Part shown: positions 40,108-62,729 of the stretch, piece after piece
Layout of the letters: each line of letters begins with the position of its first letter
Position numbering within the stretch: the first letter of the stretch is position 1
NCBI GenBank assembly: GCA_048886685.1
Contig: JBHLKM010000015.1
Span: forward strand, 49,073 to 113,072
DNA length: 64,000 nt
Origin: Candidatus Hodarchaeota archaeon
GTDB taxonomy: Archaea; Asgardarchaeota; Lokiarchaeia; Sigyniarchaeales; SOKP01
Reading direction: 5' to 3'
Notes under the pieces: generated by a model
Database searches by the model: none
Told to the model about the DNA's origin: nothing
The model's input: only the letters and a program-made list of their open reading frames with translations
Translations under genes and position numbers: made by a program

Positions 40108-40135
40108 TTTTCAAAGGAATTTTCATTGAAATCAG
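40108..40135 (+). repeat. Repeat A copy 1 (left part only)
   Basis: ttttcaaaggaattttcattgaaatcag. Confidence 0.85.
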
Positions 40136-40630
40136 GCTAAAAAATAAGCAGGGTGAGTTCGTCATCGCGAAAGATAGCTTAGAGGTAAACAAACCATTGA
40201 AAATAGAAACCTAAAGGGTGTGAAAGCTAAATCTTAATAAGGATATTCAACTATCTTAGTGTGAATATCTAAAGGTGAATCCAATATTCCCTGTTTTTTT
40301 AGAAAAGTAAGAATTAGAGAATTACTGCAAACCCTTGTGGATATCTCCCAAGAACAAATCTATCAAGAGCTTCTTAAGGAAAAAAGCGATAAGGAGCTTC
40401 ATGAAATGGACGAAAATGAGCTAATATTCTTAATTCTTGAGGTGTTAAAACGATTAGAAAAGAAAAAGATGAAAAAGGAAGTTAAATTAATTTATATTTA
40501 GCCATAATCACAATTGTTCTACTTCTGCTCGTTTCATGTTCTCTCACTTCCCAGTAAAAATTCTACGAGATATTTAAATGTCTCCTTCACATTCTCTCTA
40601 AACTATTGAATACTGTTTAGTTTTTCCATT

Positions 40631-40667
40631 GAATTTTCATTGAAATCAGAAGCTGAATTTACTTTCA
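40631..40667 (+). repeat. Repeat A copy 2
   Basis: gaattttcattgaaatcagaagctgaatttactttca. Confidence 0.9.
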
Positions 40668-40766
40668 TGAATATTTTTTTTGATAGATCCCTAGATTAAA
40701 TAAAACAGAATAAGATAAGATTTAAAAAAAAAATAGTTTGATGGTTAAGAATATCAATTAAATTAT

Positions 40767-40785
40767 TACTTGATATTGTCAAGTA
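40767..40785. promoter_or_regulatory. Inverted repeat TACTTGA-N5-TCAAGTA, candidate MarR operator
   Basis: Perfect 7-bp arms just upstream of the MarR-GNAT gene. Confidence 0.55.
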
Positions 40786-40790
40786 TTTAA

Positions 40791-41774
40791 TTGCCAAAGT
40801 CAAACTTTATATTAGCAAATACATTTATTAAAAATCGATTGATGAAGATTAATCTAGAAAGAATAGGAAAAATTAGAAGTTTCAATCGTTTTTATACAAA
40901 TTTACTTGGACTTTTAGATAAGACTCTACTTAAAAGTGTATATTCTCTAACTGAAGTGAGAATAATGTTTGAACTTAACCGCTTATCAATCTCCACTGCA
41001 AGTGAACTTGTAAAAATACTTAATTTAGATGCAGCTTATCTTAGCCGAATATTACGCAAATTTGAAAAAAAATATATCGTTCAAAAAGAGCGATCGAGTA
41101 AAGATATGCGTAAACAACTAATTTCCCTTACCAATAAAGGAAAAAAGATAATTTCAGAACTAAAGGAAAAAGCAAATGAGCAGATTAAAACTTTGCTTGA
41201 GGATCTAGCAGAAGAAGATCAATATCGATTAGTTAATGCGATGAAAAATATTGAAAGAATTTTACAGAGTGAAAAGAAAAAGTCAATGTTTTATACTATA
41301 AGGTCTTACAAACCAGGTGATATTGGATATATTATTTATCGACATGGAGTAGTTTATGCAAATGAATATCAGCTTGATGCAACGTTTGAAGCTTATGTAG
41401 CTAAATATATGGCAGAATTTATTGAAAAATATGATCCAGCTAAAGAAAATATGTGGATTGTTGAAAACGAAAGTGAGATCATTGGTTCAATTGCCATTGC
41501 GAAAGTGAATGAAAAAATCGCTCAATTGCGTTGGCTTCTTGTTGAACCCCATGAACGAAATAAAGGAATTGGTAAAAAACTAATATACGAAGCTCTTAAT
41601 TTTTGTAAGAATCATGATTATGAAAAAGTGATATTAGGGACTTTTAGCGACCTTATCATAGCCCGGCACTTATATAGAAAGAATGACTTTAAATTGATCG
41701 AATCTAAAACTCATTATATATGGGGACAAAATATAACTGAAGAAGATTGGGAGTTAAAACTCCGTACAAAATAA
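40791..41774 (+). CDS. MarR-GNAT bifunctional regulator/acetyltransferase
   Basis: IRSFNRFYT…LDAAYLSRIL wHTH and AQLRWLLVEP…GIGKKL; probable real start is ATG 40842. Confidence 0.92.
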   Translation: MPKSNFILANTFIKNRLMKINLERIGKIRSFNRFYTNLLGLLDKTLLKSVYSLTEVRIMFELNRLSISTASELVKILNLDAAYLSRILRKFEKKYIVQKERSSKDMRKQLISLTNKGKKIISELKEKANEQIKTLLEDLAEEDQYRLVNAMKNIERILQSEKKKSMFYTIRSYKPGDIGYIIYRHGVVYANEYQLDATFEAYVAKYMAEFIEKYDPAKENMWIVENESEIIGSIAIAKVNEKIAQLRWLLVEPHERNKGIGKKLIYEALNFCKNHDYEKVILGTFSDLIIARHLYRKNDFKLIESKTHYIWGQNITEEDWELKLRTK

Positions 41775-42132: not shown

Positions 42133-42168
42133 AATTTTCATTGAACTCAGACGCTGAATTTACCATTC
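42133..42168 (+). repeat. Repeat A copy 3
   Basis: aattttcattgaactcagacgctgaatttaccattc. Confidence 0.9.
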
Positions 42169-42599
42169 GAGAAGTAGACTTTTTAAGCAAAAATTTTTAT
42201 TTAAAAATTCTTAAAAAAAATATTCGTCAATACTGAAAATGAACTCATCCTTCTATCATAAGGATAAGGAATCTATAATTCGTAAACTTTTTTAATTTTA
42301 TGATACTGTTTAGATATTCGATGGAATTATAATCGATTCAAAGCAATTTGGGACATAATTTAGTAAGGTTATCTGCTATTCCTATTAGCGAACAATCTTA
42401 TATCCCAATATTAAAAATTTCTCTCTCTTTTTGTTCTAAATCCTACAATTTCCCTCTTAATATAAATAAATTTATTAAAGTTGTTAATCTTTATTTTTAA
42501 GAATAAGAGTATATTACAACCATTTATATAAGAATTTTATATAGGTTCCATCAAAAATTCAAAATTTTCTAAATGAAAATTATGTAGAAGGAAACAATT

Positions 42600-45500
42600 T
42601 TGACAGAAAATTTATATTTTAAGAGAAAAAAAAAAAGGATTCTCTTGATTTCCTTTATTTTCATTTTTAACTTAATTTCAATAATCTTCCTACCAAGCAG
42701 TGTTATAATTATAAAAGATATAAAGAAGAGTTTTGATAATGTAATCGATGATAATACTTTTTTTATTCAAACTTCTTCAGGTGGTCCTCCTAATAGAGCC
42801 TATTTTAAATATTATAAAGTAATAACAATTGATAATGCAAAGGTCTCTGGTTCAGGAAACCATAAAAATTATCCTGTGTTAATTTCCCTATTTGATTCAG
42901 ATTTACATGATAATGTCCAACTAAATGGCGAAGATATTGCTTTTTCTAACGATACAGCATGGTTGGATCACGAACTAGAACTATTTAAAAAGGATTATAA
43001 TGGAACACACGCTCATTTGGTAACATGGGTAAGAATTCCTTCGTTATCCACTTCAACAGATACCAAATTCTATATGTATTATAGCAACTCCACTATGGGG
43101 GCTCGGGAGAATCCATCTGGCGTATGGGAAGGCAACTTCAAGGGAGTGTGGCATCTATCAGAAGACCCAACAGGAACAATCTATGATTCAACCTCCAACA
43201 ACAATGATGGTACATCCCAAGGTGTTATGACTTCAGGTGACCAAGTAGATGGTCAAATCGATGGAAGTTTGGATTTTGATGGAAATGATGATAATATTAG
43301 GATAACTGATGCTGCTAGTTTGGATATTACCTCTGCCATTACGGTTGAAGCATGGGTTAATGGAACGGGAAATTGGTGGAATTCCAAATATCAATATAGG
43401 AAAAAGATAAATATAACAAATAATTACGGCTCTACAGTTGTGGCGAATACTATAGTCAAGTTTACCGCAGACACAGCGACTCTAATTTCAACTGGCAAGC
43501 TTAGAACCGATGAGAAAGACTGGAGGATTGGATATTGGGATGGTTATTCTTGGATTGAGCTAGCAAGAGATGTTTATATTGGATGGGACACATCGAACAC
43601 AGAAACATGGTTTAGATTACAAGCAGATATAACTGATGGAAATTCGGATAACAATTATTATGTATATTATGGATATTCTGATGAGATTGGAACTCCTACA
43701 ACTTTAGGTCTTTCAGAAGGCATTATAAAACAACAACCTGCTGGAGGAATGGGATGGGACAAAGCTATAGATTACATGGATAACATAGAATGGGGACTTG
43801 CCCAAGCATATAGCTATTCACCTTCATACACAAGTTGGTATGTTGTTACAAAAATAAGCTGGTATTGCTCTCACGAAGATAGCACTACTTCCCAATTACT
43901 TGCTGGTTACATTTTTGACGGTATTAACAAGCTAGAGGGTGAGGAAATTACTAATGGAAAAAGTGCTACATTCACAGGGAGTTCAGTTGTCAAAAATGCT
44001 TATAATGATGCGGTATTCTCAAAACCATATCCTCAGCCAGAAAGAGGTAGCACTTACTATATGGCTCTCTTCCCCGATTCTAGTCGTACTGCTTCAATGG
44101 AACCTATTTTTTGGGCTATTGAACTTTCTGCTGGTAATGGAGCTTATTGGGTAATAAGATCGGGAACTTGGACTTTATGGGGAAGTAATGGAGATTTTAA
44201 ATATCAACTCTATGGATATGAAGCCCCAAATAATGACTGTGTAGCCTCTCTTGGCTTAGAAGAACAAAATGGAATCAATAAAGGGAATGCCCCTTCTCTT
44301 GCCTTTGATAATTCAAATGTTGCAGGGCTTATAAATAATAAAGTTATATTCGCCAATATTGGAGCTGGTTGGAATTATGTAGTCTTAACTTACGATGGCA
44401 CTAATCAAACATTATATGTCGATGGGGAATTAAGGGAGACCTCAGCACTCACTGGAGCTATAAACACAAATATCAATGACTTAATCATCGGAGATTTCTT
44501 CAATGGTATAATTGATGAAGTCCGCATTTCCAGTATTGCACGTTCTGCTGATTGGATTAAGACAGAATTCAACAACCATCATGAACCAAATCGTTTTTAT
44601 TCTGTTGGCAATTCCACCATGGTTGACAATATTCCCCCAAAATTTTCAAATTTAAGCGAAAGTTCAGATCCTCTAGAATTAGGTGATACTGAAATTATTA
44701 CGATAAACGTTACCGATCTATTTGGGATTAACCAAGTTTTGATAGAAAATGAAGGGGGTAACCACTCAATGACAAACATTGTGGGAGATCTGTGGCAATA
44801 TGACTCTTGGACTCCTGCAAATTTAGGTAATTATACATACACGATTTATATGGAAGATATTAACCACAATTGGAATTCTACTAGTGGCTCGATCAGAGTA
44901 GTTGATACTACGCCGCCAACCTATTCAAATTTAATAGAAAGTGCTGATCCTTTAAAATTAGGACAAAATGAAACGATAACCATTAAAGTTTATGATTCTC
45001 CAGGTTCAGGAGTGAACCAAACGATATTAGAATATGAATCATTGAATTATACGATGATATTTATGGGTGAAGAAACGTGGAATTGGAATAACTGGAAACC
45101 AACTTCCGAAGGACTCTTTCCTTATAAAATATACATGCAAGATATGCAAAATAATTGGAATGTAACAAATGGTAGCATTACTGTAATAACTACAACTGCG
45201 CCTGTTATAGAAAATCTGACCGAAAGTGCAGATCCTTTAGAATTGGGAAATAATATTACCATTGCTGTAGATGTATCTGATAATGAAACTAGCGTATCAT
45301 CAGTGCTAATCGAATTAGAGGGCGTAAATTATACAATGAGTAATATTGGAGGAAATACTTACGAATATAACTGGACGAGAAGCTTGGTTGGAATTGTTGT
45401 GTATACAATTTATGCAAATGATACAGGAAATAATTGGAATAAAATAACTAGTAGTTTTGATATTGTAGACACAACACCACCTTCTTTTACAGATCAAATT

Positions 45501-47450
45501 GAGAGTCAAAATCCATTAGAACTTGGAAATACTGAAGTAATATCTATTAATGCTACAGATCTAACTGGTATTAAACAAATAAAAATCGAATTTGAAGGAA
45601 GTAATCACTCGATGTCAAATATCGGTGGAGACACTTGGCAATATAATCTTTGGATGCCCTCTACTACAGGAAATTACTTCTACACGATTTGGATCGAAGA
45701 TAATAATAACAACTGGAATTTTTCTTTAGGTTCAATTATAGTTCAAGATACAATAGCACCTTTTTATTCAAATTTAACGAAAAGTGCTGATCCCGTGGAA
45801 TTAGGGACTATTTTAATCATAAATATTAATATTACTGATTTATCTAACATCAAACGAGCTTTAATAGAATTTGAAGGTTCTAACCACTCAATGATAAATA
45901 TTGGTGGAGATTTATGGCAATACGACTCTTGGATGCCTAACAAAATAGGTAACTATTCATACACGATTCATATGGAAGATAATAACAATAATTGGAACTC
46001 CACTAGTGGTTCAATAATTTTCCAAGATACAATTTCACCGGTTTATTCAAATTTATTTGAAAGCGCAGATCCTTTAGAATTAGGTGAAAGCATACTTATC
46101 AGAATTGATACTAATGATTTTGCAGGTATCAACCAATCTTTAATAGAATTTGAAGGATCAAATCATACTATGATTAATATCTATGGAAATACATGGCAAT
46201 ATGATTCCTGGACTCCAAATAATTGGATTATTTACCAATATAAAATTTATATCGAAGATAATAGCGGTAATTGGAATTTTACGAATGGCAATATTACAGT
46301 TTATGACACCACGCCCCCACTTCCACCTGTTATAACTATGGCTCCAAGCGGAGATGTCAGCGGGATTTTAACATTTGATTGGATAGATGGTTTTGATCCA
46401 TCAGGTATATCTTATTATATCTTAATTATTGATAATGAACCCGACCCGTTTATTACACCTGGATATGTATTTATATTTAATATTACAAATATAAGCCCTG
46501 AAAGCAGCTATTGTGAATTACCCGAAACTCTTCCGCAAGGAAAATATTATTATTTCCTAGCTCAAGTAGATGGGTTAGGACATCAAAGTAGCTATACTAC
46601 AGGAACATTTACTGTTGTCTCAACTAATAATAATCTTATGATTTATATCATTATTGGAATAACATTAATGAGTATAATTGGTTTAGTCTCTACCGCAATT
46701 ATAGTGAAAAAAAGAACGAAAAAAGATGTACTCCCTCAGAAAGAAAAGATTCCTTTTAAAATAGTAATTTCCCATATAAATAACATTTCAAGTTCGCAAT
46801 TTATTTCTGAAAAAGAAGGATCTAAGAAAAAATTAATAAAAAAAGAAACCGATAAAACATTTTGGGATGAAGAATTTCTAGATGAAAAAGAATTAGGCAA
46901 CCGATTAAATGAAATTAGATTATTAGGAGAAGAATTATTTGCTGATGGAGCTTATCTAGAAGCTCAAAAACAATTTGAGGAAGCTGAAAAACTGCTTTTG
47001 AAATTTAATAAAAAAGAAGAAGCATCTTTATATTCAGATTTAATTGCTGGAATTCAAGGATTAATTGAAGAAAGGGAAAGCAGATTGGCAAAGTTAGAAC
47101 AGGAAAAATTAGAGGGTAATTCCATGAATATCTTTAATTTGTATTATGATATAATTGAAATCTCAAGAAAGTTAAAAGATGCTGATGGTGTAAGTATGTA
47201 TCAGTCCGAATTGATTCAATTATTAAGAGATGGTAAAGTTGAATTTACAGATTTAGAATATCAAAGATTGAATTTAGAGGACCAAGCAAATGCATTACTT
47301 AATGATAATCTTTTTGAAAGAGCAGCTAAAATTTTTGAAAAATGTGAAAAAATTTCTCACTTTTTAGTTCGATCTGGAAACGATCCAGAGAAAACTAATT
47401 TAGAAAAATTTAGAAACAAAAAAAATGAATGTCTAAAGAAAACCAAATAA
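42600..47450 (+). CDS. Large membrane-anchored surface protein: DUF2341/LamG-like, six Ig-like repeats, TM helix, helical cytoplasmic tail
   Basis: N-terminal hydrophobic helix, WVRIP…YMYY, GIIDEVRIS, six ~93-aa ESADPLELG repeats, TM IYIIIGITL…KKR. Confidence 0.85.
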   Translation: MTENLYFKRKKKRILLISFIFIFNLISIIFLPSSVIIIKDIKKSFDNVIDDNTFFIQTSSGGPPNRAYFKYYKVITIDNAKVSGSGNHKNYPVLISLFDSDLHDNVQLNGEDIAFSNDTAWLDHELELFKKDYNGTHAHLVTWVRIPSLSTSTDTKFYMYYSNSTMGARENPSGVWEGNFKGVWHLSEDPTGTIYDSTSNNNDGTSQGVMTSGDQVDGQIDGSLDFDGNDDNIRITDAASLDITSAITVEAWVNGTGNWWNSKYQYRKKINITNNYGSTVVANTIVKFTADTATLISTGKLRTDEKDWRIGYWDGYSWIELARDVYIGWDTSNTETWFRLQADITDGNSDNNYYVYYGYSDEIGTPTTLGLSEGIIKQQPAGGMGWDKAIDYMDNIEWGLAQAYSYSPSYTSWYVVTKISWYCSHEDSTTSQLLAGYIFDGINKLEGEEITNGKSATFTGSSVVKNAYNDAVFSKPYPQPERGSTYYMALFPDSSRTASMEPIFWAIELSAGNGAYWVIRSGTWTLWGSNGDFKYQLYGYEAPNNDCVASLGLEEQNGINKGNAPSLAFDNSNVAGLINNKVIFANIGAGWNYVVLTYDGTNQTLYVDGELRETSALTGAINTNINDLIIGDFFNGIIDEVRISSIARSADWIKTEFNNHHEPNRFYSVGNSTMVDNIPPKFSNLSESSDPLELGDTEIITINVTDLFGINQVLIENEGGNHSMTNIVGDLWQYDSWTPANLGNYTYTIYMEDINHNWNSTSGSIRVVDTTPPTYSNLIESADPLKLGQNETITIKVYDSPGSGVNQTILEYESLNYTMIFMGEETWNWNNWKPTSEGLFPYKIYMQDMQNNWNVTNGSITVITTTAPVIENLTESADPLELGNNITIAVDVSDNETSVSSVLIELEGVNYTMSNIGGNTYEYNWTRSLVGIVVYTIYANDTGNNWNKITSSFDIVDTTPPSFTDQIESQNPLELGNTEVISINATDLTGIKQIKIEFEGSNHSMSNIGGDTWQYNLWMPSTTGNYFYTIWIEDNNNNWNFSLGSIIVQDTIAPFYSNLTKSADPVELGTILIININITDLSNIKRALIEFEGSNHSMINIGGDLWQYDSWMPNKIGNYSYTIHMEDNNNNWNSTSGSIIFQDTISPVYSNLFESADPLELGESILIRIDTNDFAGINQSLIEFEGSNHTMINIYGNTWQYDSWTPNNWIIYQYKIYIEDNSGNWNFTNGNITVYDTTPPLPPVITMAPSGDVSGILTFDWIDGFDPSGISYYILIIDNEPDPFITPGYVFIFNITNISPESSYCELPETLPQGKYYYFLAQVDGLGHQSSYTTGTFTVVSTNNNLMIYIIIGITLMSIIGLVSTAIIVKKRTKKDVLPQKEKIPFKIVISHINNISSSQFISEKEGSKKKLIKKETDKTFWDEEFLDEKELGNRLNEIRLLGEELFADGAYLEAQKQFEEAEKLLLKFNKKEEASLYSDLIAGIQGLIEERESRLAKLEQEKLEGNSMNIFNLYYDIIEISRKLKDADGVSMYQSELIQLLRDGKVEFTDLEYQRLNLEDQANALLNDNLFERAAKIFEKCEKISHFLVRSGNDPEKTNLEKFRNKKNECLKKTK

Positions 47451-47527
47451 TCGATAAAGCAAACATTACTCACATGTTTTATTTGTTATTAACAACAGGA
47501 CCTCCTGGGCCTCCTCCAGAACCATTT

Positions 47528-47640
47528 CGATTTTAAGAAGTTGCATAATCAATGGGGATATCTCATCTAATACTTCTGGATTATTATAGATAGATAGTAC
47601 CTCTAAGAGAAGATCACACAATGAGACAATCGATAAATGA
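47528..47640 (-). pseudogene. Internal fragment of a TPR gene paralogous to 60531..62573
   Basis: Closely similar to about 61235-61347 (cgattttaagaagttg…taagagaagatcacacaatg). Confidence 0.85.
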
Positions 47641-47775
47641 GAAAGAATAAAAAAACACTAGAACATTTCTTAGCACAAACTCTTACTATTGAAAGTGAAG
47701 ACCAAGAATGTTGGCAAATATAAAGAATTTGAAATTATCTTAAAATTTAAGTCAAAGAAATAATAAAAAAATTGG

Positions 47776-47911
47776 AAAATCTTTGCTCACGAACATACTC
47801 CTTTTTTACCATTCCAAATACTTCCGCAATCCCTCAAGCCCTAAGCCTGAACCTTGTGCTCCCCTTTCGACTTCCACACACTCGTGCTATTGAGAGTAGC
47901 AGGCTAAATAG
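47776..47911. repeat. Repeat B1: copy of the 23S rRNA 3' tip plus trailer
   Basis: 47831-47911 matches 63881-63961 at 80/81 nt; also gctcacgaacatactcctt. Confidence 0.95.
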
Positions 47912-48785
47912 ATTTTTTCAGCTTTTTACTAAGAAAAATTACTACAATAAATGAAATACTAAGTAGTGAAAATAGACTATATCCTGGAATTCTTTCGGTA
48001 GTCTTAAGTTGAATTGTTATCGAAAATTCTTCTGTAATATAATTTTCTTTGCTAATGGTGATAATTCCCGTAAGAGTATTTGAAGTCATCATATGTGTAG
48101 GGTAATTAAGTATGTATGTACCATTAGAAGTTTCAGTAAAATCATAAGAAGAGTCCCCTATTGTCAGTATAATAGTAGCATTTAATACAGGAATACCTCC
48201 TCGAGTAGGATCAGTCAAGTTAATTCCAATAGGGACCACACGACCTTTAGCAACGCTTATTTGATTATTCTTAAAATTACTACTCAAAGAATATTCAAGA
48301 ACCCTTTTCATAATTATTAAAAGAACAGTCGCATTTTTTGAATCGTAGTTCTCTTTATCAAAAGTTGCAATTATCTCATACGTTCCAACATCTCTCGTTT
48401 CAGTCTCGAAATCTAACACATAATGATGATTCCCAGTTTCAATAAGAAATCCGCTGCCGCTGTCAATGGTTTCATTCAGATTGTTAAATTGCTTCCAAGA
48501 ATAAGAGGCATTACTTAATCCTGTTAATGGGACACCTGATTCATTTGTATAGGTAAATGTAAAATTAACAGCATCCCAAATAAAGATGTTCGTATCTAAG
48601 TGGAATTCTGAACTCTCATTTATAAGAGTTGGTAAGTCTGCTGAATATTCTGGTATCTCTATCTTAAAATTCATAAAACTGCCATTTATATTCGGTTGTC
48701 TTAAGTCTTTTAAATACACTAAACTTATGACATTGATAAAAAGAGATATCAGAATTATTGTTCTTAATTTCTTATTTAATTTCAC
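47904..48785 (-). CDS. Secreted Ig-like surface protein with IPGY-TM-basic C-terminal anchor
   Basis: Signal-like N-terminus; C-terminus RIPGYSLFSLLSISFIVVIFLSKKLKKSI. Confidence 0.8.
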   Translation of the reverse strand: MKLNKKLRTIILISLFINVISLVYLKDLRQPNINGSFMNFKIEIPEYSADLPTLINESSEFHLDTNIFIWDAVNFTFTYTNESGVPLTGLSNASYSWKQFNNLNETIDSGSGFLIETGNHHYVLDFETETRDVGTYEIIATFDKENYDSKNATVLLIIMKRVLEYSLSSNFKNNQISVAKGRVVPIGINLTDPTRGGIPVLNATIILTIGDSSYDFTETSNGTYILNYPTHMMTSNTLTGIITISKENYITEEFSITIQLKTTERIPGYSLFSLLSISFIVVIFLSKKLKKSI

Positions 48786-48845
48786 CTTATTTTCGCCTAA
48801 TCCTATTTCTAAATAATCTAAATTATATTAGATCCGCTTATTATT

Positions 48846-49046
48846 TTAAGTTATGAAAATTCTATAGTTCTTCAAATCAATATTTATTACACTTATGTAA
48901 AAAGGACAAATAGTATTTAATGTCTTTGACATTAAAATCATATCAATAATTATGAAAAATCCACCAAAAACGACAAACAAATACCTTATAGTCCTGTATT
49001 TTCTTGGAATAAGATATAGTAGAAGTTCCGCCATTTTTGATTTCAC
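48846..49046 (-). CDS. Small hypothetical membrane protein or fragment
   Basis: 66 aa with one TM segment; weak support. Confidence 0.35.
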   Translation of the reverse strand: MKSKMAELLLYLIPRKYRTIRYLFVVFGGFFIIIDMILMSKTLNTICPFYISVINIDLKNYRIFIT

Positions 49047-49150
49047 TCAAATTATATTAGATGTACTAATAAAATGTAATTTGGAAGTAAGTAATAATTA
49101 AGCTAAATTCCTTTTTAAATATATATTTCAATTAACACTCTTAGTCTGAA

Positions 49151-49204
49151 CAATTTACCACCATTTATGTTCAATTTACCATTATTTATGATAAATTTAC
49201 TACT
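49151..49204. promoter_or_regulatory. Three AATTTAC direct repeats with 21-bp period
   Basis: caatttaccaccatttatgtt / caatttaccattatttatgat / aaatttactact upstream of 49269. Confidence 0.6.
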
Positions 49205-49268
49205 AAACTAAGGAGAAACATTTTTATTATGGAACGATGTTGATTTTTATTATTTCAGTGAGAATAAG

Positions 49269-50345
49269 ATGAGAAAATCTGGAGAAATTCGAGTAATAAT
49301 ATTACTATTATTAGGAATACTGTTTGCTTTTTTACCAAAATTTACCACCAATCTTAATTTTAAAAACTCAGAGTGTAATGATAATATAAGTTTAGATAAT
49401 GAAAATTTGAAAATTTCAAAAATATCAGGAAAAATTCATATTGATGATACCAATCCAAGTATGAACTGGTCTGTTGCGAGAGATGCGGGAATTTGCATAG
49501 GGAATGGCACTTATTCTGAGCCGTATGTCATAGAGGATTTAGTAATAAACGGCGTTGGTTCAGGAGATTGCATTTTAATCGAAAATTCGGATGTATACTT
49601 TAGGATTGAAAATTGTACGGTCTACAATTCTGGGATTTACCCTCTTAGTGGAATCTTGGAACCTTGGTATCATTTTGCAGGAATCCGATTAGAAAATGTA
49701 AACAATTCTTTATTACTTGATAATGATTGTTCCTCTAACAATGATGGAATACACGTAGCTGGTTTTAATAACACCATTTCGGGAAATACCGCAAATAACA
49801 ATATTAATGGGTCTGGAATATTTGTAGATGGTTTTAAAAACACCGTTGAGGGAAATACCGCAAATAACAATGATTTTCCTGGGATATGGTTAGGTGGATA
49901 TAATTCCACGGTTTCAGGAAATACTGCAATGAATAATAGTTTCGCAGGTATTGGGATAATGTTAATGAATTGTTATTACAACAATGTTTCTGGAAATACC
50001 GCAGCTATACAATTATTTGATAGCGATTATAACAATGTTTCTGGAAATACTGGAGCTGGAATAGCCTTGTTTGCTAGCGATTATAACACTATTTCAGGAA
50101 ATACTGCAAGTTATAGGATAATTTTAGATGAAAGCGATTATAATACCATTTCTGGCAACGAAGCATGTTGGGAGGAACGTGGTGACTGTGAAGGAAACGT
50201 ATTTAGCGATAACAATGGACCTTGTCCCCCGCCTAAAGAAGGAATTCCAATTGAATTAATAATTTTAATTTCGGTTCTTAGCGGGGGGGCAGTGATAGGG
50301 CTAACAACGATTCTGTTAATTAGACACAAAAGGAAAAGAATTTAA
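49269..50345 (+). CDS. NosD/CASH right-handed beta-helix surface protein with C-terminal TM anchor
   Basis: GNGTYSEPYVIEDLVI, repeated NTISGNTA units, C-terminal TM plus basic tail. Confidence 0.88.
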   Translation: MRKSGEIRVIILLLLGILFAFLPKFTTNLNFKNSECNDNISLDNENLKISKISGKIHIDDTNPSMNWSVARDAGICIGNGTYSEPYVIEDLVINGVGSGDCILIENSDVYFRIENCTVYNSGIYPLSGILEPWYHFAGIRLENVNNSLLLDNDCSSNNDGIHVAGFNNTISGNTANNNINGSGIFVDGFKNTVEGNTANNNDFPGIWLGGYNSTVSGNTAMNNSFAGIGIMLMNCYYNNVSGNTAAIQLFDSDYNNVSGNTGAGIALFASDYNTISGNTASYRIILDESDYNTISGNEACWEERGDCEGNVFSDNNGPCPPPKEGIPIELIILISVLSGGAVIGLTTILLIRHKRKRI

Positions 50346-50390: not shown

Positions 50391-50448
50391 TTTTTCAAAG
50401 GAATTTTCATTGAAATCAGACGCTGAATTTACCTTTCCATTCCAATTT
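50391..50448 (+). repeat. Repeat A copy 4 (full)
   Basis: tttttcaaaggaattttcattgaaatcagacgctgaatttacctttccattccaattt. Confidence 0.97.
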
Positions 50449-51259: not shown

Positions 51260-51302
51260 TATTTTAAGTTTTATCTATGACACATATAAAGCAGTTTTTC
51301 AA

Positions 51303-52196: not shown

Positions 52197-52280
52197 TTTT
52201 CAAAGGAATTTTCATTGAAATCAGACGCTGAATTTACCTTTCCATCCAATTTTCACAGAAAATTGGGACAAAATTAAAAA
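52197..52280 (+). repeat. Repeat A copy 5 with extended right flank
   Basis: ttttcaaaggaattttcattgaaatcagacgctgaatttacctttccatccaattttcacagaaaattgggacaaaattaaaaa. Confidence 0.97.
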
Positions 52281-53580: not shown

Positions 53581-53626
53581 TTTTCACCAAATTTTCATTG
53601 AACTCAGACGCTGAATTTACCTTTCC
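53581..53626 (+). repeat. Repeat A copy 6
   Basis: ttttcaccaaattttcattgaactcagacgctgaatttacctttcc. Confidence 0.95.
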
Positions 53627-54087
53627 TAACTTTTCTATATGCACTCGAAGAGTTAGCCTATGATATTTATAAAAATTTTGGAGGATTAATAGATACTTAT
53701 AATGGTAATATCAAACCGTTTAAAGGAATAGAAGACATAATTAACCAACATCTAAATATCTCGCCAAAAGTGAAACTTAATCAAACGGAAAAAGATATAA
53801 TAGAAAAAACAAAGTCACAACTAACTCAAACAGAGCGCGAGGTGATGAATCGACTAAAAGAAAAGTTAAAAGATTTACTTAAAAAGTTTAATGATGATGA
53901 TTTTTTTCCTTATCCATATATCTTTAAGCCTCCAAGTCCCCCTGGAGATGACGTGTTACAGGGGCAACTAAAACCAGAATTTATACCACCCAAAAAAAAG
54001 CAAGAATTTGAGCCTTATTGCAAGCATTGTGGTGCTGAACTACCTGCTGTACAATTAATTTGTCCTGCTTGCGGAAAGAAGATTTAA
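53626..54087 (+). pseudogene. 5'-truncated gene with C-terminal zinc ribbon (ORF track 53770..54087)
   Basis: Frame stays open with protein-like sequence (ALEELAYDIYKNFGGLIDTYNGNIKPFKGIEDII) back into repeat A6, with no ATG; ends YCKHCG…CPACGKKI. Confidence 0.65.
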
Positions 54088-54785: not shown

Positions 54786-54840
54786 TTTTCACTAAATTTT
54801 CATTGAAATCAGACGCTGAATTTACCTTTCCATTCCAATT
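54786..54840 (+). repeat. Repeat A copy 7
   Basis: ttttcactaaattttcattgaaatcagacgctgaatttacctttccattccaatt. Confidence 0.95.
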
Positions 54841-55060: not shown

Positions 55061-55110
55061 TTTTTCAAAGGAATTTTCTTTGAAATCAGACTCTGAATTT
55101 ACCTTTCCAT
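55061..55110 (+). repeat. Repeat A copy 8
   Basis: tttttcaaaggaattttctttgaaatcagactctgaatttacctttccat. Confidence 0.95.
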
Positions 55111-55290: not shown

Positions 55291-58014
55291 ATGAAAAAAT
55301 CAAGGTTTAGTTTAGTTCTTATAGTGATTATTCTAATTAGCTTTTCATTTTCTAGTTATGTTAAGCGAATAGAACCTAAAAGTCAAACTGTTGGAAACAT
55401 AGATAATGTAAAAATGTCAGGAACAGCTCCTTTCATATTTGGATTAGATTCAGAGATGGACGACTTAGATCCTCATAATTCATTGGATATAGCGGTAATT
55501 GAGCAAGTATGCGAAAAACTATTTGCATATAATCTAACTGATCCTAACTTACCAATTATCCCTCAATTAGCTTCTGATTTTGGAACATGGGATGGACCTA
55601 ATCCAGATGGAACATGGAATTATAATGTTCCTCTTAGAAGTGGTGTCTATTTTCATGATGGAACTGTTTTTAATGCAACTGCTGTAAAATGGAGTTTTGA
55701 TAGACTCTATTATTTTGTTGATAACGATCTCACTAAAATTGGAGGATTATATGAATTTTACGATGAGACGGTGGGTGGTTTGGTTTCTATCATTAATAGA
55801 GTTGAAATTGTTAATGAATTTGAAGTAAAATTTGTTTTAAATAAGTATTATGCTCCTTTTGAAGATTTACTTACATTCCCTGGTTCAAGCATATTATCTC
55901 CTGCATCCACGCCAGCTACTAGTTTTATTAATACTTATTTCGGTGATTTAGTAGGCACTGGGCCATTTGATTATGATGCCTATCATAAAAGTATAGAAGA
56001 AATCTATTTTCATGCTTTTGAGAATTATTGGGGTGATAAAGCCGATATTGATAGTATGATCTTCAAAGTTATCAGTGATGATACTTCAAGGAATAATGCT
56101 TTATTAAGTGGTACTGTTCATTTCATAGCTACTCCATTAGTTTCCTTTTATTCGTCTATTCAAACAGATCCAGATACAGTTCTCTTAGATTCCGGGTTGG
56201 TAGGGCCTACTGTAACTTACTTGGGGATGAATAATAATCTAATTAATTCAACATTCAGAAAAGCAATATCATATACGATTGATTATTCCTCTATAATTGA
56301 GTTTTATGTAGATGTTAGAGATAATGGGGCAGTAAGGGCAAAATCTCCAATTGCTGAAGGAATGAAATACTCAAATTCAACTTTTGATGCTGCTTATTTT
56401 AATATTACTAAAGCGAGAATAATTATGCAAAGTATGGGGTATGGTACTGGGTTGGATCCAACATGGCCGGGTTTAAATGAAACTGAATGGACCTCGTCTA
56501 TTTTTGATTCATTTAATTTTACCTACCATACCGGAAGTACAATTAGAGAAAGATTATCAGATTTACTCATTGCTAATCTTTCTAAAATAGGTATAGAGAT
56601 TACTCCCGCTGAAATATCATATCCTGAATTTATGTATAGCTTATTTGAGCTTGGAGGCTTCAATAGAGACATGCTACAACTCTACTGGTTAGGATGGGGA
56701 GCAGATTTTAATGATCCCAGCAATATTATAGATCATTCATTTACGAATAGAACTATTGATGGAAATGGTGTTCAATATAATGGTTATGAAGCTGCAATAG
56801 AGGCAGGAAGAAATCCATATGATTTAAATGATAATGTTCAGTTATTGATGGAAGCGGCATTACAAGAGATTAATTCAACAGTAAGAGAGGGTTTGTATGA
56901 CAGGATTCAGGAATTGCTTGTAGAAGAAGATATGCCATGGGCATTTTTAATTAGCCCTAATGTTACTTATGCTCATAATGTCAATTTAACAAATTTTCCA
57001 GAAAATAGGATGGGTAGAATATACTTTTATCCTTGTCAATGGAATGCTCCAGCCAGTACTCTCTCTGCACCTTCAAGCTTAACAGCAGATACAATTTCAT
57101 GGAATCAGATTAACCTTCAATGGATAGATACCGAATCAAATGAAGATGGCTTCCGAATTCAACGTAAATTAGGAGTAACTGGAGATTATATGGAGATTGC
57201 TACAGTAGGACCTAATATTAATACATATATTGATACTGATTTATTACCTGGTGGTATCTATTATTACAGAGTTCAAGCATATAACTTTACTCTCGGAAGT
57301 TCAGCTTGGTCAAACGAAGGAATAAATACAACTCTATCTGCCTTAGCTCCAATTTTAAATGTAATAACTCCCAATCCTGATATAGACGGAGATATTTTCT
57401 TAAATTGGAGTGATGTCGATGGTGCCTCTTATTATTATGTATATCGAGATACAGGACTAATTACGGACCTCTCAGGATTAGTTCCTATATCTAGTCCTGC
57501 AATTTCACAATATAATGATAACGGCTTACTCGAAGGAACCTATTATTATGTGATTACTGGGTATAATGCCGGTGAAGAAACACCAATCTCGAATTGTGAA
57601 TCTGCAACAGTTGACCTTCCTGAACCAGATGCCCCGGTTTTAAGTTCTATCACACCAAACCCTGATACAGATGGAATTGTAAATTTAGAATGGAATGATA
57701 TAGTTGGTGCTACTAGTTATAATGTATATCGAGACACATCGCTAATTACGGACATCTCAGGATTATCTCCTATATCTAGTCCCACAATTTCACAATATAA
57801 TGATACTGAATTAGCCGTAGGAACCTATTATTATGTGATTACCGCAGTGGGTATAGGGGGAGAATCCTTGATTTCAAACTGTGAATCAGTAGAGATAACT
57901 CAACCACCGGTTACTCCCAGGATACCTGGATTTGATTTATATTTATTTTTACCTATTGTATCAATAATCTTAATAGGAAAGATTATTCGATCCAAGAAAA
58001 AAACAATCAAATAA
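55291..58014 (+). CDS. Family 5 ABC substrate-binding protein fused to FN3-like domains, with IPGF-TM anchor
   Basis: LRSGVYFHDGTVFNA, VGTGPF, YLGMN, GWGADFNDP; FN3 YYYRVQAYN; RIPGFDLY…KKKTIK. Confidence 0.9.
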   Translation: MKKSRFSLVLIVIILISFSFSSYVKRIEPKSQTVGNIDNVKMSGTAPFIFGLDSEMDDLDPHNSLDIAVIEQVCEKLFAYNLTDPNLPIIPQLASDFGTWDGPNPDGTWNYNVPLRSGVYFHDGTVFNATAVKWSFDRLYYFVDNDLTKIGGLYEFYDETVGGLVSIINRVEIVNEFEVKFVLNKYYAPFEDLLTFPGSSILSPASTPATSFINTYFGDLVGTGPFDYDAYHKSIEEIYFHAFENYWGDKADIDSMIFKVISDDTSRNNALLSGTVHFIATPLVSFYSSIQTDPDTVLLDSGLVGPTVTYLGMNNNLINSTFRKAISYTIDYSSIIEFYVDVRDNGAVRAKSPIAEGMKYSNSTFDAAYFNITKARIIMQSMGYGTGLDPTWPGLNETEWTSSIFDSFNFTYHTGSTIRERLSDLLIANLSKIGIEITPAEISYPEFMYSLFELGGFNRDMLQLYWLGWGADFNDPSNIIDHSFTNRTIDGNGVQYNGYEAAIEAGRNPYDLNDNVQLLMEAALQEINSTVREGLYDRIQELLVEEDMPWAFLISPNVTYAHNVNLTNFPENRMGRIYFYPCQWNAPASTLSAPSSLTADTISWNQINLQWIDTESNEDGFRIQRKLGVTGDYMEIATVGPNINTYIDTDLLPGGIYYYRVQAYNFTLGSSAWSNEGINTTLSALAPILNVITPNPDIDGDIFLNWSDVDGASYYYVYRDTGLITDLSGLVPISSPAISQYNDNGLLEGTYYYVITGYNAGEETPISNCESATVDLPEPDAPVLSSITPNPDTDGIVNLEWNDIVGATSYNVYRDTSLITDISGLSPISSPTISQYNDTELAVGTYYYVITAVGIGGESLISNCESVEITQPPVTPRIPGFDLYLFLPIVSIILIGKIIRSKKKTIK

Positions 58015-58182: not shown

Positions 58183-58219
58183 TTGAAATCAGACGCTGAA
58201 TTTACCTTTCCATTTCAAT
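58183..58219 (+). repeat. Repeat A copy 9 (left part missing)
   Basis: ttgaaatcagacgctgaatttacctttccatttcaat. Confidence 0.9.
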
Positions 58220-58494: not shown

Positions 58495-60441
58495 ATGGCT
58501 CAAATAGAATCTCTAGAATTAAATAAGATAGAACGTCTCGTAAATGAGGGTAGATTTGATGATGCCCTTCAATTGATTAATAAATTTGAAGAGGGAGGAG
58601 ATATTTCTCTTTATGATAAAGTATCATGTAATCTTTTTAAGGGAGAGCTATTATATCAGCAAGGATTATTTGAAGATTCATTTCAACTTGCCAAACACGC
58701 TTATAAAGAGAGTTTGGGATTAGGAAAAAGCCTTTTAACCATTGATTGCTTATATGGTATGGCAATAAACTTAATCAGCCAAAGTAAAACTAAAGAAGCG
58801 GATCTATTAATAAAACAGGGAGAAGAACTTCTTGAAGTTATACCTCAAATAAGCCCAAAGGATTACAAGAAAAGAGAAGCAGCATTAATCTATCTTAAAG
58901 GATTGGTTTTTCATCCATGGACATCTCAAGAAAGTAATATAAATCTCGCAGTAAAATATTTCCAAGAAAGTTTAGCGATATATGAAAGTTATGATAATAA
59001 AGATGGAATAGTTGGATACCTTGTATTAATTAGTTCTATATTTAATCTGATAGGTGAATTAGAAAAAAGTTTTGAGAATATAGAGCGAGCTTTACATCTA
59101 GCTACGGAATTAAACAGAAAACACTCTATAGGATGGATTTTGTTTATTAAAGGCACATTTTATCATCTAAAGGGGAAGATCGATGAAGGTGTTAAACTTT
59201 ATCAGCAGAGTTTATACATTTTTAAAGAACTCAATAATTACAATATGGTTGCCAGTCTGCTTAACAATCTAGGTGGAATTTTTAAATTGAAAGGAGATCT
59301 AGATCACGCTTTGGAATGTTTAGAAGAGGCTGTAGAATTAGGTACCAAATTTAGTAGTTTGAAAACCATAGCAAATTTTTATGATTATTTAATTCAAATT
59401 TTAATTGAGAAAGGAGAGATCAGCAGGGCAGAAGAATGTTTAGAGAAATTAGATCAAATAAGTAAACAATTGAATCTAAAAGAAACATATTGCATATTCT
59501 TTTTTAACAAGGCTTTGATTTTAAAAACTAGTACTCGTGTTATTAATCGAGGGAAAGCAGAAGAGCTATTAAAACGAGTCCTCGAATTGGATCCAATTTA
59601 CGAATTTAAAATAGGAGCTCTAATTAATTTAAGTGATTTACTTCTAATAGAATTAAAGACGACACATAATTTAGAAGTTTTGCAAGAAATAGAAAGATAT
59701 ATTAACCAACTAATAACAATTGCAGAAAATTCGGGTTCATATGAGGTGTTGGGAGAATCTTACCTTCTACAAGCCAAATTAGCCTTAATATCATTAGAAT
59801 TGGAGGATGCTAGAAGATTATTGACTCAAGGACAACAAATTGCTGAAAAATTCGGACTACAACAATTAGCAATGAAGATTTCAAACGAACATGATGATCT
59901 ACTGAAAGAATTAAGTAACTGGGAAAAATTAAGAGAATCAAAAGCATCTTTGCCTGAACGAATGGAATTAGCTCGTTTGAATGAACAAATAGAAGGAATA
60001 ATTAAAAAACGTGTCATTGAAGTTCCAAAACTGCCTGAAGAGACACCAATGTTACTTTTAATTTTATCAGAAGGAGGAGAATCCCTTTTCTCTCAATATT
60101 TTATAGACGACCAATCGATAGACGATCATCTTTTTGCAGGTTTCTTAAGTGCTATTAATTCATTTATTAATGAAATCTTTTCTGAGGGTCTTGATAGGGT
60201 GATTTCTGGGGAGCACACTATTCTCTTAAACGCAATGGCACCATATTTTATTTGTTATATCTTCAAGGGTCAATCATATTCTGCTCATTTAAAGATTAAG
60301 GCGTTTATCGATGGTATACAAAGTGATAAAGAAATTTGGGATAGGTTTGAAAGGTTTTTCAAGATAAACCAGGAAATTCAATTAAAAGATGTTCCCTCTC
60401 TCAAAACTTTAATACAAGAGATATTCATTGAAACGACATGA
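58495..60441 (+). CDS. TPR-repeat protein with C-terminal longin/roadblock-like domain
   Basis: TPR helices (LNNLGGIFKLKGDLDHALE); C-terminal LLILSEGGESLFS…FAGFLSAINSF. Confidence 0.85.
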   Translation: MAQIESLELNKIERLVNEGRFDDALQLINKFEEGGDISLYDKVSCNLFKGELLYQQGLFEDSFQLAKHAYKESLGLGKSLLTIDCLYGMAINLISQSKTKEADLLIKQGEELLEVIPQISPKDYKKREAALIYLKGLVFHPWTSQESNINLAVKYFQESLAIYESYDNKDGIVGYLVLISSIFNLIGELEKSFENIERALHLATELNRKHSIGWILFIKGTFYHLKGKIDEGVKLYQQSLYIFKELNNYNMVASLLNNLGGIFKLKGDLDHALECLEEAVELGTKFSSLKTIANFYDYLIQILIEKGEISRAEECLEKLDQISKQLNLKETYCIFFFNKALILKTSTRVINRGKAEELLKRVLELDPIYEFKIGALINLSDLLLIELKTTHNLEVLQEIERYINQLITIAENSGSYEVLGESYLLQAKLALISLELEDARRLLTQGQQIAEKFGLQQLAMKISNEHDDLLKELSNWEKLRESKASLPERMELARLNEQIEGIIKKRVIEVPKLPEETPMLLLILSEGGESLFSQYFIDDQSIDDHLFAGFLSAINSFINEIFSEGLDRVISGEHTILLNAMAPYFICYIFKGQSYSAHLKIKAFIDGIQSDKEIWDRFERFFKINQEIQLKDVPSLKTLIQEIFIETT

Positions 60442-60450
60442 TTTTCTCTC

Positions 60451-60538
60451 TTTTTTCAAAGGTATTTTCATTGAAATCAGACCCTGAATTTACCTTTCCA
60501 TTCCATTTTCACAGAAAATTAAGACAAAATTTAAAAAA
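60451..60538 (+). repeat. Repeat A copy 10 with extended right flank
   Basis: ttttttcaaaggtattttcattgaaatcagaccctgaatttacctttccattccattttcacagaaaattaagacaaaatttaaaaaa. Confidence 0.97.
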
Positions 60539-62573
60539 TCTCATTGATCACCGTTTTGAGCGCGGGGGGCTTATCGAGCTCTAACATCTCACTAGTTTTG
60601 ACCGATTTTTCTAAAGCTTGCCAAATTTCCGAATTTTCCCTTATGGCTTCGGTAAAGCGTGATAACTTTTGCAACGCAGGATATGATTGCCCTTTAATAA
60701 CATAACATGTTAAAAACGGTTCTATCGGGTTTATTAAGATAGTATTTTCACCGATTCTAATTCGATCGATAGATTTAGAAAAGATTTCGTTACTGAATGT
60801 ATTAAAAGCAGACATAAATGAGCTAAAAAGGTTTCTATAATCCCAATTTTCTACGAAAGGATGACTAAAGTACGTAGACCCACCCTCACCCATAACAAGG
60901 AGTAATATTGGCTCCTCTTCCACTAACTCAGGAGGATCTACTGCCTGTTTTCCTTTTAATCGGTTAATGACCCCGTCAAAGGAAGCTAATTCGATTCTAT
61001 CTGCCATCGGAGCGTTTTCATACTTAAGTTTATCCCACTCCTCAGTTTTCTCAAGTAGAATATCGTATTCATTGGAAATCTTTTGTGCTAACAAGTTAAG
61101 ACCGTGGTCCTCTGCGATCTGTTGAGCTTGCATATATAAAGATTTTCCTCCTTCAAGATCCAATTGAATTAATGCCAACTTAGCTTGAAGTAATTTTGCC
61201 TCACCCAACCATGAAAACGAATGTTGGTTATCTGCGATTTTAAGAAGTTGAATAATCAATGGGGATATCTCATCTATTACTTCTGAATTATTGTAGATAG
61301 ATAGTTCTTCTAAGAGAAGATCACACAATGTAACTATCGCTAAAATATGAAATTGAGCGAAAACAATATCATGCTCAACTATTTGTTTTAATAGTCTTTC
61401 AGCATCAGTATGATCACGCATTCGGCTACTCATTTTTAATATTGATGCTTTTCCTAATAGATATCCCTGCTCAAATAATATGCTTTCATGCTGAACTGAG
61501 AGATTTTCTAATTGTTTTAAATTCTCTTGTGCTTGTTCACGGGAGTTGTTATCAAGGTTGATTAATAATAAGGCTAACAACGGAAATACCATGGATAAAC
61601 GACTTCCAATCTTTTCACCAAGTACCAAAGCCTGCTCAAAATACTCTATAGCTTGATCATTTTCACCTCCCTCCCTGCAAATTTCCCCAATAATCCGTTT
61701 ATTAAAGCTTAAATCAAAGTAATTTAAACTTTCTTCTGCTAATTTGGTTGACTGTTTAATATATTTTAAAGCTTTATTCAACTCACCTTTACTATGGTAA
61801 ATCTGCCCAATAATCCTCGTTGAGGCTGCCTTAATAAAATCGCTTATTTTCTCTATAGATAGGGACTTCTTACAAAATTCTAATGCTCTATTAAGATCTC
61901 CCTTAGCAAAATATGTTAATCCTATTGTGGAAAGAATATGTGCGATGCCGGTTTGAAAATCTAATTTTTCAAAGAGTTTTAAACTCTTCATGGCGTATTC
62001 TAAGGCTGTATCCAGTTCTCCTTTTTGAAACCATATGATGGCAATTAAGTCTAAGGTATATCCAACTTGAACGTCATATTTTATTTTTTCTCCTAGAGTT
62101 AAAGCTTCCAATGCTAAATCTAATGCAATATTATAATTAATCTTGAAAAGATAAATCCTAGATTTCAAATACGTTAGAAGGAATTTTAACTTAGCATTAT
62201 TAGCGGGAGATCCATTTGAAAGAGTATTAAATAATTCTTCGGCTTTTGAAATTAAATCAAGTGCTTCATCATGTTTTCCTAAGTATGCAATAACAGCCTT
62301 AAGGAAGAGTGCTTCAATAGATTCCGGAACCAATCCTAATTCTTGACTCATCGAATAAGCAAGTTCGCCGACTTCTACTGCTTCTTTCAATTGAGCTGTT
62401 AAACGATATATATTTCCTTTTAAAAGTAGTGCCGATAATTGATCTTTAGAAGTAAGTTCAATCTTTTTCTCAAAATTTATAACCATTTCGAGCGCTTCTC
62501 TTACTTTCCCGTTATACATGAGTTCTTTTGCGCAGATTAAATCCTCGGGTCTTGGATCGGACATCACTTTCAC
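60531..62573 (-). CDS. TPR-repeat protein with C-terminal longin/roadblock-like domain (paralog of 58495)
   Basis: Same architecture; shared LLQAKLALI, KISNE, CYVIKGQSY motifs. Confidence 0.85.
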   Translation of the reverse strand: MKVMSDPRPEDLICAKELMYNGKVREALEMVINFEKKIELTSKDQLSALLLKGNIYRLTAQLKEAVEVGELAYSMSQELGLVPESIEALFLKAVIAYLGKHDEALDLISKAEELFNTLSNGSPANNAKLKFLLTYLKSRIYLFKINYNIALDLALEALTLGEKIKYDVQVGYTLDLIAIIWFQKGELDTALEYAMKSLKLFEKLDFQTGIAHILSTIGLTYFAKGDLNRALEFCKKSLSIEKISDFIKAASTRIIGQIYHSKGELNKALKYIKQSTKLAEESLNYFDLSFNKRIIGEICREGGENDQAIEYFEQALVLGEKIGSRLSMVFPLLALLLINLDNNSREQAQENLKQLENLSVQHESILFEQGYLLGKASILKMSSRMRDHTDAERLLKQIVEHDIVFAQFHILAIVTLCDLLLEELSIYNNSEVIDEISPLIIQLLKIADNQHSFSWLGEAKLLQAKLALIQLDLEGGKSLYMQAQQIAEDHGLNLLAQKISNEYDILLEKTEEWDKLKYENAPMADRIELASFDGVINRLKGKQAVDPPELVEEEPILLLVMGEGGSTYFSHPFVENWDYRNLFSSFMSAFNTFSNEIFSKSIDRIRIGENTILINPIEPFLTCYVIKGQSYPALQKLSRFTEAIRENSEIWQALEKSVKTSEMLELDKPPALKTVINEIF

Positions 62574-62660
62574 TAAGTAAAAATTGGATCTAAAATAAGG
62601 GAAGAAGGATTTCCTTAAAAGCCTTATGTACGAGAATTTCGATTTCTGATTTTCTTTAGT

Positions 62661-62708
62661 TTTTTCAATGGAATTTTCATTGAAATCAGACGCTGAATTT
62701 ACCTTTCA
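62661..62708 (+). repeat. Repeat A copy 11
   Basis: tttttcaatggaattttcattgaaatcagacgctgaatttacctttca. Confidence 0.95.
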
Positions 62709-62729
62709 TGAATATAAAATTAAAAAATA

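Follow-up and report, generated by a model that had tools for sequence, protein, structure and literature searches.

An integron-like gene-cassette array with an unrecognised 35-bp junction site behind the 23S rRNA gene in a Loki-type Asgard archaeon

How is a row of unrelated accessory genes put together behind a ribosomal RNA gene, with copies of one short motif standing between them on a single strand? The question is raised by the right-hand part of a 64,000-nt stretch of DNA (the window) that belongs to contig C15 of a Loki-type Asgard archaeon of the Promethearchaeia, the Lokiarchaeia of older usage. The source assembly is a metagenome-assembled genome (MAG) of 47 contigs and 4.4 Mb, with an estimated contamination of 8.4%. 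The motif, here termed site A, was studied in a comparative set of 461 copies on 255 contigs, with about 1.7 Mb of flanking DNA, and the genome was compared with 23 other members of its genus and with 16 genomes from other genera of the same order. All coordinates are positions in the window unless a contig or locus is named. The results support the view of the locus as an integron-like array whose cassettes meet at an unrecognised site, with no recombinase gene in cis.

The copies of site A were located in three ways. A 37-nt pattern, with up to three mismatches allowed, matched eight times in the window, always on the plus strand, with none expected from shuffled sequence. A repeat finder returned ten in-register copies together with one that consists of a left half, and a profile made from the genome's own site copies, with which contig C15 was scanned, gave eleven hits, all on the plus strand (40104, 40619, 42126, 50390, 52193, 53579, 54785, 55060, 58170, 60451 and 62658). 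An earlier inspection of the letters alone (the sequence-only reading) had listed eleven co-oriented, intergenic copies and none in the first 40 kb. The profile recovered every one of them at the positions given there, ORF (open reading frame) calls and the profile scan agreed that each array copy is intergenic and on the same strand, and the other 89 kb of the contig (C15:1-89175) proved free of profile hits. The eleven copies are packed into 22.6 kb (40.1-62.7 kb).

Individual copies, numbered along the plus strand, differ in small ways. Copy 1 (40118..40135), at the distal end of the array and adjoining radical-SAM genes, is truncated to its left half and ends ...TGAAATCAG. Copy 2 (40632..40668) is slightly degenerate, with AAG at the centre and ACTTTCA as right arm; copy 3 occupies 42133..42169, copy 4 (50402..50438) matches the consensus exactly, and copies 5 and 6 lie at 52207..52243 and 53590..53626. 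Copy 7 (54795..54831) is separated by 277 nt from copy 8 (55072..55108, centre ACT) with no gene between, that is, by an empty cassette. Copy 9 (58183..58211) is without its left third; to its right the sequence matches, at 89% identity, DNA that flanks a copy on contig C20. Copy 10 (60463..60499) has the centre ACC, and copy 11 (62672..62708), the nearest to the 23S gene, stands about 30 nt away from a 23S trailer copy, on the side of that copy's far end. Junctions of trailer copy and site A like that at copy 11 were found in at least four other genomes.

Site A is also present well beyond this locus. The genome holds 46 copies, 42 of which stand in co-oriented arrays: eleven on C15, eight on C25, six on C12, four on C34, three plus three on C19, three on C5, and two each on C20 and C2. 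Of the 23 further genomes of the genus, 22 contain a 23-nt core, which is missing from all 16 genomes searched in the order's other genera; marine-sediment metagenomes hold many further copies, and the motif was not found in viral contigs. When neighbouring copies are taken as pairs within 10 kb, 129 pairs are co-oriented against a single one that is not, at a median spacing of 1386 nt. Facing neighbours occur at one locus, C19:22988-29799 (two copies on the minus strand, one on the plus strand), where a segment may have been inverted or two arrays may meet. A few site-bearing contigs were also met in MAGs labelled Odinarchaeota or Nanopelagicaceae (loci L232, L253 and L290); these are probably mis-binned Promethearchaeia contigs.

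As arrays or single copies lie at contig ends in seven cases, and the MAG has the fragmentation and estimated contamination given above, it might be asked if the arrays are chimeric joins made during assembly at a short repeat. The same architecture is seen in 255 contigs that derive from numerous samples assembled independently, a single-contig chromosome record included, and the repeat is shorter than a read. We consider an assembly artefact extremely improbable.

The conserved core of site A is 35 nt long, AATTTTCATTGAAATCAGACNCTGAATTTACCTTT, and its central N is the sole free base. Conservation was scored over 277 ungapped copies from many species in a 60-nt frame: positions 17-51 are conserved at 83-100%, with a sharp drop on both sides, whereas nearby coding DNA diverges by about 20-35% across the genus. 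Within the core an imperfect dyad, TTGAAATCAG-ACN-CTGAATTTAC, is framed by AATTTTCA...CTTT. Extra modules that accompany some copies were rejected as parts of the site; they are the promoter-like and terminator flanks of a TPR gene family, with a TATA-like block and the hairpin CCAATTT...AAATTGG. Neither terminal inverted repeats nor target duplications were seen at the site copies.

Two small stems can be drawn and the sequence is strongly conserved, as would be expected of a small RNA gene, or of a cis-regulatory RNA element, repeated between genes. The folding results speak against it: as DNA the core reaches -3.0 to -3.4 kcal/mol, with z-scores of -0.3 to -0.6 against shuffled sequences, pairing of the outer AAAGG/CCTTT stem is lost in about 40% of copies, and essentially no compensatory stem changes occur among the 273 distinct copies in which covariation was assessed. 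A twin-hairpin or T-shaped fold of the core likewise found no support, its energy being equal to that of shuffles and its outer stem being broken at that same frequency. Rfam gave no match in the region, either at the gathering threshold or at E up to 0.1, ARAGORN found no tRNA in the region around the array, and site A bears no relation to gene orientation, so that an RNA element is very improbable. As there is no stable fold and no compensatory change, and the outer stem is often broken, site A has the look of a duplex site defined by its sequence, and neither that of a single strand that folds nor that of an RNA.

Does site A then act as a joint between units of DNA? The genes that flank it face either way (309:296), and within 13 families of cargo genes 115 of 134 members (86%) hold one polarity relative to site A, against 62% by chance and a maximum of 72% in 2000 simulations. 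Since families keep one polarity so far above random, site and cargo form polar units. Where copies from different contigs have flanking sequence in common, it is mostly one flank: 262 pairs have homology on one side only, 114 on the left and 148 on the right, and this homology usually ceases 0-15 nt from site A. Both flanks are shared in 18 pairs, 14 of which are the same record fetched twice, which leaves about four independent cases. An example in the window is copy 5, where positions 51815-52280 are 96-97% identical to the sediment contig L159 through site A, and the left flank that matches gives way to an unrelated right flank.

Whole cassettes behave likewise. A GNAT cassette of 951 nt, which extends exactly from one A to the next, is shared by two species at 91.5% identity while the DNA outside it is unrelated, and precise indels of one cassette, with two sites on one side of the comparison and one on the other, were found between L273 and L224 and between L201 and L213 (cassettes of 0.8 or 1.1 kb). 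Just inside each of its two site-A borders, the 1.1-kb indel cassette (L273 5690-7090) carries short duplicates of the far end of the trailer of 23S (GCTC[ATG]…GAACATACTCC…). Cassette content and order thus vary between close relatives with the breakpoints at the site, as the sequence-only reading had asked of a capture platform, and the comparison indicates that cassettes move between species.

These results bear on the possibility that site A is a miniature non-autonomous mobile element, similar to REP (repetitive extragenic palindromic), PATE (palindrome-associated transposable element) or MITE (miniature inverted-repeat transposable element) sequences, that inserts itself while the genes in between are bystanders. 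Site A is indeed short, intergenic, palindrome-bearing, multi-copy and genus-specific. Against this stand the 129:1 co-orientation and the clustering of 42 of the 46 copies, in place of a scatter in both orientations; the copies are without terminal inverted repeats or target duplications, the hairpin is unstable, and five genomes contain no Y1/RAYT transposase. Furthermore, cargo families keep their polarity to A and travel with A into new contexts. A self-inserting miniature element is very improbable.

We next consider the position of the array in the genome. The sequence-only reading placed it directly downstream of a 23S rRNA gene, and Rfam reported no rRNA in the window. A GC-richer repeat of about 200 nt at 63792-64000 is about 80% identical across the genus, and in three relatives it overlaps, on the opposite strand, the 3′ end of an Rfam-confirmed 23S gene. 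Alignment to relatives' 23S genes identifies the minus-strand segment 63920..64000, which matches their last ~85 nt, as the last 81 nt of the gene, within which the contig stops; it is followed by the conserved 3′ trailer (63801..63919, -) with the blocks ACAAGGTTCAGGCTTAGGG and GGAGTATGTTCTTGAGC and then a T-run. The earlier placement is hence upheld by the three relatives. Whole-genome searches for large-subunit rRNA in five genomes found no 23S gene, presumably because it is unassembled or missed by the prefilter.

At its other end the locus is bounded by a conserved 1-kb anchor segment (35667-36682), 80-88% identical at the nucleotide level in at least 14 genomes of the genus, a value that exceeds that of neighbouring genes. 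It consists of a divergent pair: a gene for a 166-aa protein, for which neither a Pfam family nor an informative look-alike was found, and an ArsR/HxlR-like helix-turn-helix (HTH) gene (36293..36682, +) that keeps its syntenic position in 12 or more genomes of the genus; this gene forms the left anchor of the variable interval. The distance from anchor to 23S gene in seven species is 0.58, 3.3, 8.2, 8.7, 9.2, 26.7 and 27.1 kb, the last value being that of this genome. The 15 ORFs that fill the interval here have no homologue in the same interval of ten other species. The copies cluster beside the 23S gene in several species with the same polarity throughout, another point on which the first reading held: all eight species with sites in the interval agree in how site A points relative to the anchor. 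In the nearest relative, G017 (about 88% identical), the interval holds just one small gene, bracketed by the far-end motif of the trailer. For this reason the entire 36.7-63.8 kb stretch is variable, the site-A array being its 23S-proximal 23 kb.

The 23S end itself recurs inside the interval. A duplicate of the trailer alone (element B′, 62723..62848, -) brackets, with the trailer proper, an AP_endonuc_2 gene as one cassette, and a second duplicate (47770..47911, -) comprises the trailer plus the last 42 nt of 23S, 81 nt of it being 99% identical to 63881-63961. These duplicates are joints of a second, rarer type, and they show repeated addition of DNA at the 3′ end of the 23S gene. In this genome, five fragments of the 23S 3′ end or trailer exist as direct repeats, two of them on C2 (C2:289123-290076; locus L082 3124-4102), far from any 23S body, and relatives have two to five such fragments each, with differing end points within 23S. 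At locus L069 (G022:C28, ~148-151 kb) a 391-aa tyrosine integrase (7978-9153, -) is encoded 1.5 kb from a degenerate 23S tail and trailer (10706-10933, -); it is a candidate enzyme for integration at the 23S 3′ end, which would create the tail duplicates.

The genes carried between the sites were identified by ORF calling and Pfam. The first segment of the variable interval (36839..39935) is without site A and contains a 178-aa ORF and two radical-SAM genes, which are missing from the interval of G017. Within the array follow a MarR-GNAT fusion (40791..41774, +) and a three-gene cassette (42600..50345) that encodes a 1616-aa LamG/DUF2341 surface protein (+), a 293-aa protein (-) and a NosD/beta-helix protein (+), and in which one of the 23S-tail duplicates is contained. 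Next come a class I methyltransferase with a HAD hydrolase (50468..52022, -), an M28 peptidase (52274..53455, -), a small zinc-ribbon protein (53770..54087, +) and an SBP_bac_5 solute-binding protein with an fn3 domain (55291..58014, +). Two TPR proteins come after these, one a member of a paralogue family (58495..60441, +) and the other (60531..62573, -) with that family's own promoter-like and hairpin flanks. The last gene, for a xylose-isomerase-like TIM barrel of family AP_endonuc_2 (62872..63696, -), is the one bracketed by 23S-trailer copies. The sequence-only reading had named most of this cargo correctly, the MarR-GNAT, methyltransferase plus HAD, M28, solute-binding protein and two TPR assignments being matched by Pfam, which gave no confirmation of the longin part it had attached to the TPR genes.

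About 12 TPR proteins of 600-680 aa adjoin site A (window 58495-62573 and contigs C2, C5, C7, C19, C20 and C25), and their genes have common flanks, a promoter-like block (…TATAATTTCGATTTAAGA…) and a terminator hairpin, CCAATTTCACAGAAAATTGG, that folds well, with a z-score of about -2.3. The gene of the LamG/DUF2341 protein (42600-47450) contains tandem repeats of 279 nt at 44645-46345 that are 64-73% identical, and paralogues of this protein are encoded on contigs C19, C4, C22 and C39. When the ~1570 ORFs near sites of the comparative set were clustered, solely cargo-like families were obtained: NosD, alpha/beta hydrolases, carboxylesterases, GNATs, acyltransferases and beta-lactamase-like proteins, together with radical SAM, heterodisulfide-reductase-like, LRR and TPR proteins. 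GC content showed no difference that would mark the cassettes out.

How could such an array be built? We propose that the 27-kb interval from the HTH gene to the 23S gene is an array of gene cassettes, each of which would comprise one to three accessory genes with their own expression signals and would be joined to its neighbours through the asymmetric, 35-bp double-stranded site A. Cassettes would travel as circles bearing one A, and each entry or exit would be a conservative crossover of the Campbell type between two copies of A, located close to the centre of the dyad; co-oriented direct repeats, the splitting of each A between two cassettes and a fixed polarity of the cargo would all follow from such an exchange. 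The enzyme, host-encoded or supplied by a transient element, would act in trans, since none is encoded in or beside the arrays. The 23S-tail joints show additions at the 3′ end of the 23S gene too, in the manner of integrative elements at tRNA genes.

A Campbell-type system is proposed because the co-oriented repeats, the fixed polarity of cargo and the independently assorting flanks are what it predicts; the precise cassette indels and the hypervariable syntenic locus fit it too. Linkage within the site points the same way: positions 1-16 are linked to the left flank, positions 46-60 are linked to the right one, and the central N follows neither, agreeing between array neighbours at 0.66 against 0.46 expected. 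This pattern fits an exchange inside site A, on a map that is coarse because most core positions never vary. About three left and three to four right half-sites cut at the centre of the dyad look genuine. A dedicated enzyme is favoured because the near-invariant block of 35 bp is sharply bounded, its dyad has a free centre and its size is that of a recombinase site. In our judgement the chances that site A is a recombination site for circular cassettes, served by a dedicated enzyme in trans, are evenly balanced. The fuller proposal is made tentatively and falls short of being probable: an undescribed conservative site-specific system of Promethearchaeia with a 35-bp duplex site, an enzyme in trans other than a recognisable, nearby-encoded recombinase of the tyrosine, serine or HUH type, and integron-like stores of self-expressing cassettes at several loci, with a conserved home right behind the 23S gene.

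The search for an enzyme bears directly on this proposal. The sequence-only reading saw no cas gene, recombinase or transposase, and Pfam found none in the region either. The genome has one tyrosine recombinase (PF00589), a XerA-like gene on contig C2. With a single exception, every genome of the genus that was searched has the XerA-like gene, nearly always as its sole tyrosine recombinase, and this near-universal presence fits an enzyme acting in trans. One integrase lies close to a site: at L063 7617-11689 (G007:C43) site A is followed by an AAA_15/Schlafen-type defence ATPase gene and by a gene for a 424-aa integrase that abuts pyrD and ELP3-like housekeeping genes, a region with the appearance of an integrated island whose far border is formed by site A.

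Several results weigh against a dedicated site and enzyme. The L063 integrase, 2.7 kb from site A, was the sole exception when the ~1.7 Mb around the 461 copies was searched by phmmer with 30 tyrosine recombinases. Five genomes searched whole contain essentially no serine recombinase (PF00239) and no Y1 HUH transposase (PF01797), and the single tyrosine recombinase of this genome is on a contig other than that of the array. None of 120 metagenome contigs has circular ends. The remaining apparent half-sites are degenerate or internally deleted full copies, and the coarseness of the linkage map limits what can be read from it. From the earlier idea of a cassette platform with its own recombination site and an enzyme in trans, then, the array, a junction site of its own and the lack of a recombinase in cis have stood; the dedicated site and the trans enzyme are still inferred, no enzyme having been found.

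This brings in the main rival, which holds that the locus is an additive island maintained by general homologous recombination: site A would be an intergenic element with another job in the cell, at which RadA-dependent crossovers occur with no dedicated enzyme. Its job might, for example, be that of a polar transcription block or of a protein-binding insulator first used behind the rRNA operon, and cassettes would come, go and change order through these crossovers. We hold this rival to be rather unlikely. That no recombinase is linked to 461 copies fits it directly, and recombination between repeats of 35-50 nt would also yield co-orientation, homology on one flank and precise indels. The 23S-tail duplicates end variably inside 23S (~42, 75 and at least 95 nt), like recombination tracts and not like a fixed att site. 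The central base is homogenised within arrays, as by gene conversion, and in at least five genomes the 23S-proximal site A follows a T-run terminator. On the other side, 35-50 bp of shared sequence is little for homologous recombination to be efficient. No transcriptional role is apparent, site A being unrelated to the direction of neighbouring genes, and the core folds no better than shuffles. The sharply bounded block of 35 bp, almost invariant from species to species and built around a dyad whose central base is free, resembles a protein recognition site of the size used by recombinases.

Whichever mechanism operates, a sequence tag is now available that picks out hundreds of mobile gene packets in one genus, with a cargo of hydrolases, acyltransferases, radical-SAM and redox enzymes, surface proteins and TPR proteins, and the array regions explain breaks in these MAGs. 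The defined 35-bp site is a handle for finding the enzyme. If a dedicated enzyme exists, the integron principle would have been invented twice, the second time independently and in archaea, and the system would be a possible tool for gene insertion in organisms that at present lack a genetic system; even with homologous recombination alone, the locus would be a well-delimited hotspot at which gene flow among Asgard populations can be measured.

In the literature we found no description of the site A motif or of rRNA-anchored cassette arrays in Asgard archaea, and the locus is best compared with systems that share part of its design. In integrons, the attC site is an imperfect palindrome with R″, L″, L′ and R′ boxes (RYYYAAC ... 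GTTRRRY) that folds as single-stranded DNA, and the cassettes are mostly promoterless and co-oriented with the promoter of the platform. The array resembles sedentary chromosomal integrons and clusters of attC sites lacking integron-integrases (CALINs) in its rows of co-oriented, near-identical sites about 0.5-4.6 kb apart, in its unrelated cassettes of one to a few genes, and in that relatives carry different sets of cassettes, the breaks between shared and unshared DNA falling at the sites. It differs from them in that neither strand of the site A core has GTT or AAC boxes, and in that site A is without a stable single-strand fold or covariation; the earlier statement that it is not an attC accordingly holds. 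Nor is there an IntI, the genome's sole PF00589 gene being XerA-like and on C2; the cargo points either way (309:296), apparently with its own signals; and an rRNA gene, in place of attI/intI, anchors the array. Integrase-less clusters of canonical attC sites have been reported from Asgard archaea (PMC9668308), in which archaeal attC clusters are enriched, most of them without a nearby integrase (Ghaly et al. 2022, PMC9668308).

REP/RAYT palindromes and those derived from IS200/IS605 go together with a Y1 HUH transposase and form stable hairpins, often in alternating orientation. Site A arrays are unlike them too, given that PF01797 is missing from five genomes, the fold is unstable and the orientation within arrays is uniform. 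Closer in arrangement are tandem integrative elements. In cis-mobilizable elements (CIMEs), in Xer-dependent arrays of integrative mobile elements exploiting Xer (IMEX) and in pdif modules, direct repeats of a site bracket modules that have no recombinase of their own and rely on an enzyme in trans; a dif-like site has two arms of ~11 bp and a spacer of 6-8 bp, and is bound and cut by the host's Xer recombinase. As in tandem integrative elements and CIMEs, direct repeats bracket each unit of the array. Unlike CIMEs, no integrase-bearing parent element with site A was found among viral contigs or site-flanking loci, the nearest being the L063 integrase 2.7 kb away, and unlike the site of pdif and IMEX modules, site A is not dif-like in appearance.

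The additive flexible genomic islands of Alteromonas, finally, are located at tRNA and tmRNA genes, with partial direct repeats of the RNA gene downstream of inserted cassettes (Lopez-Perez and Rodriguez-Valera 2016, PMC4898812). Cassettes accumulate in these islands, differ between close relatives and flow between species (PMC4898812). The locus described here is like them in being a fixed hotspot beside a stable RNA gene, with variable cassettes and with partial repeats of the 23S tail at 47770-47911 and 62723-62848. It is unlike them in that the target is the 3′ end of a 23S rRNA gene, and in that most joints are made of a dedicated 35-bp motif that also builds arrays elsewhere in the genome.

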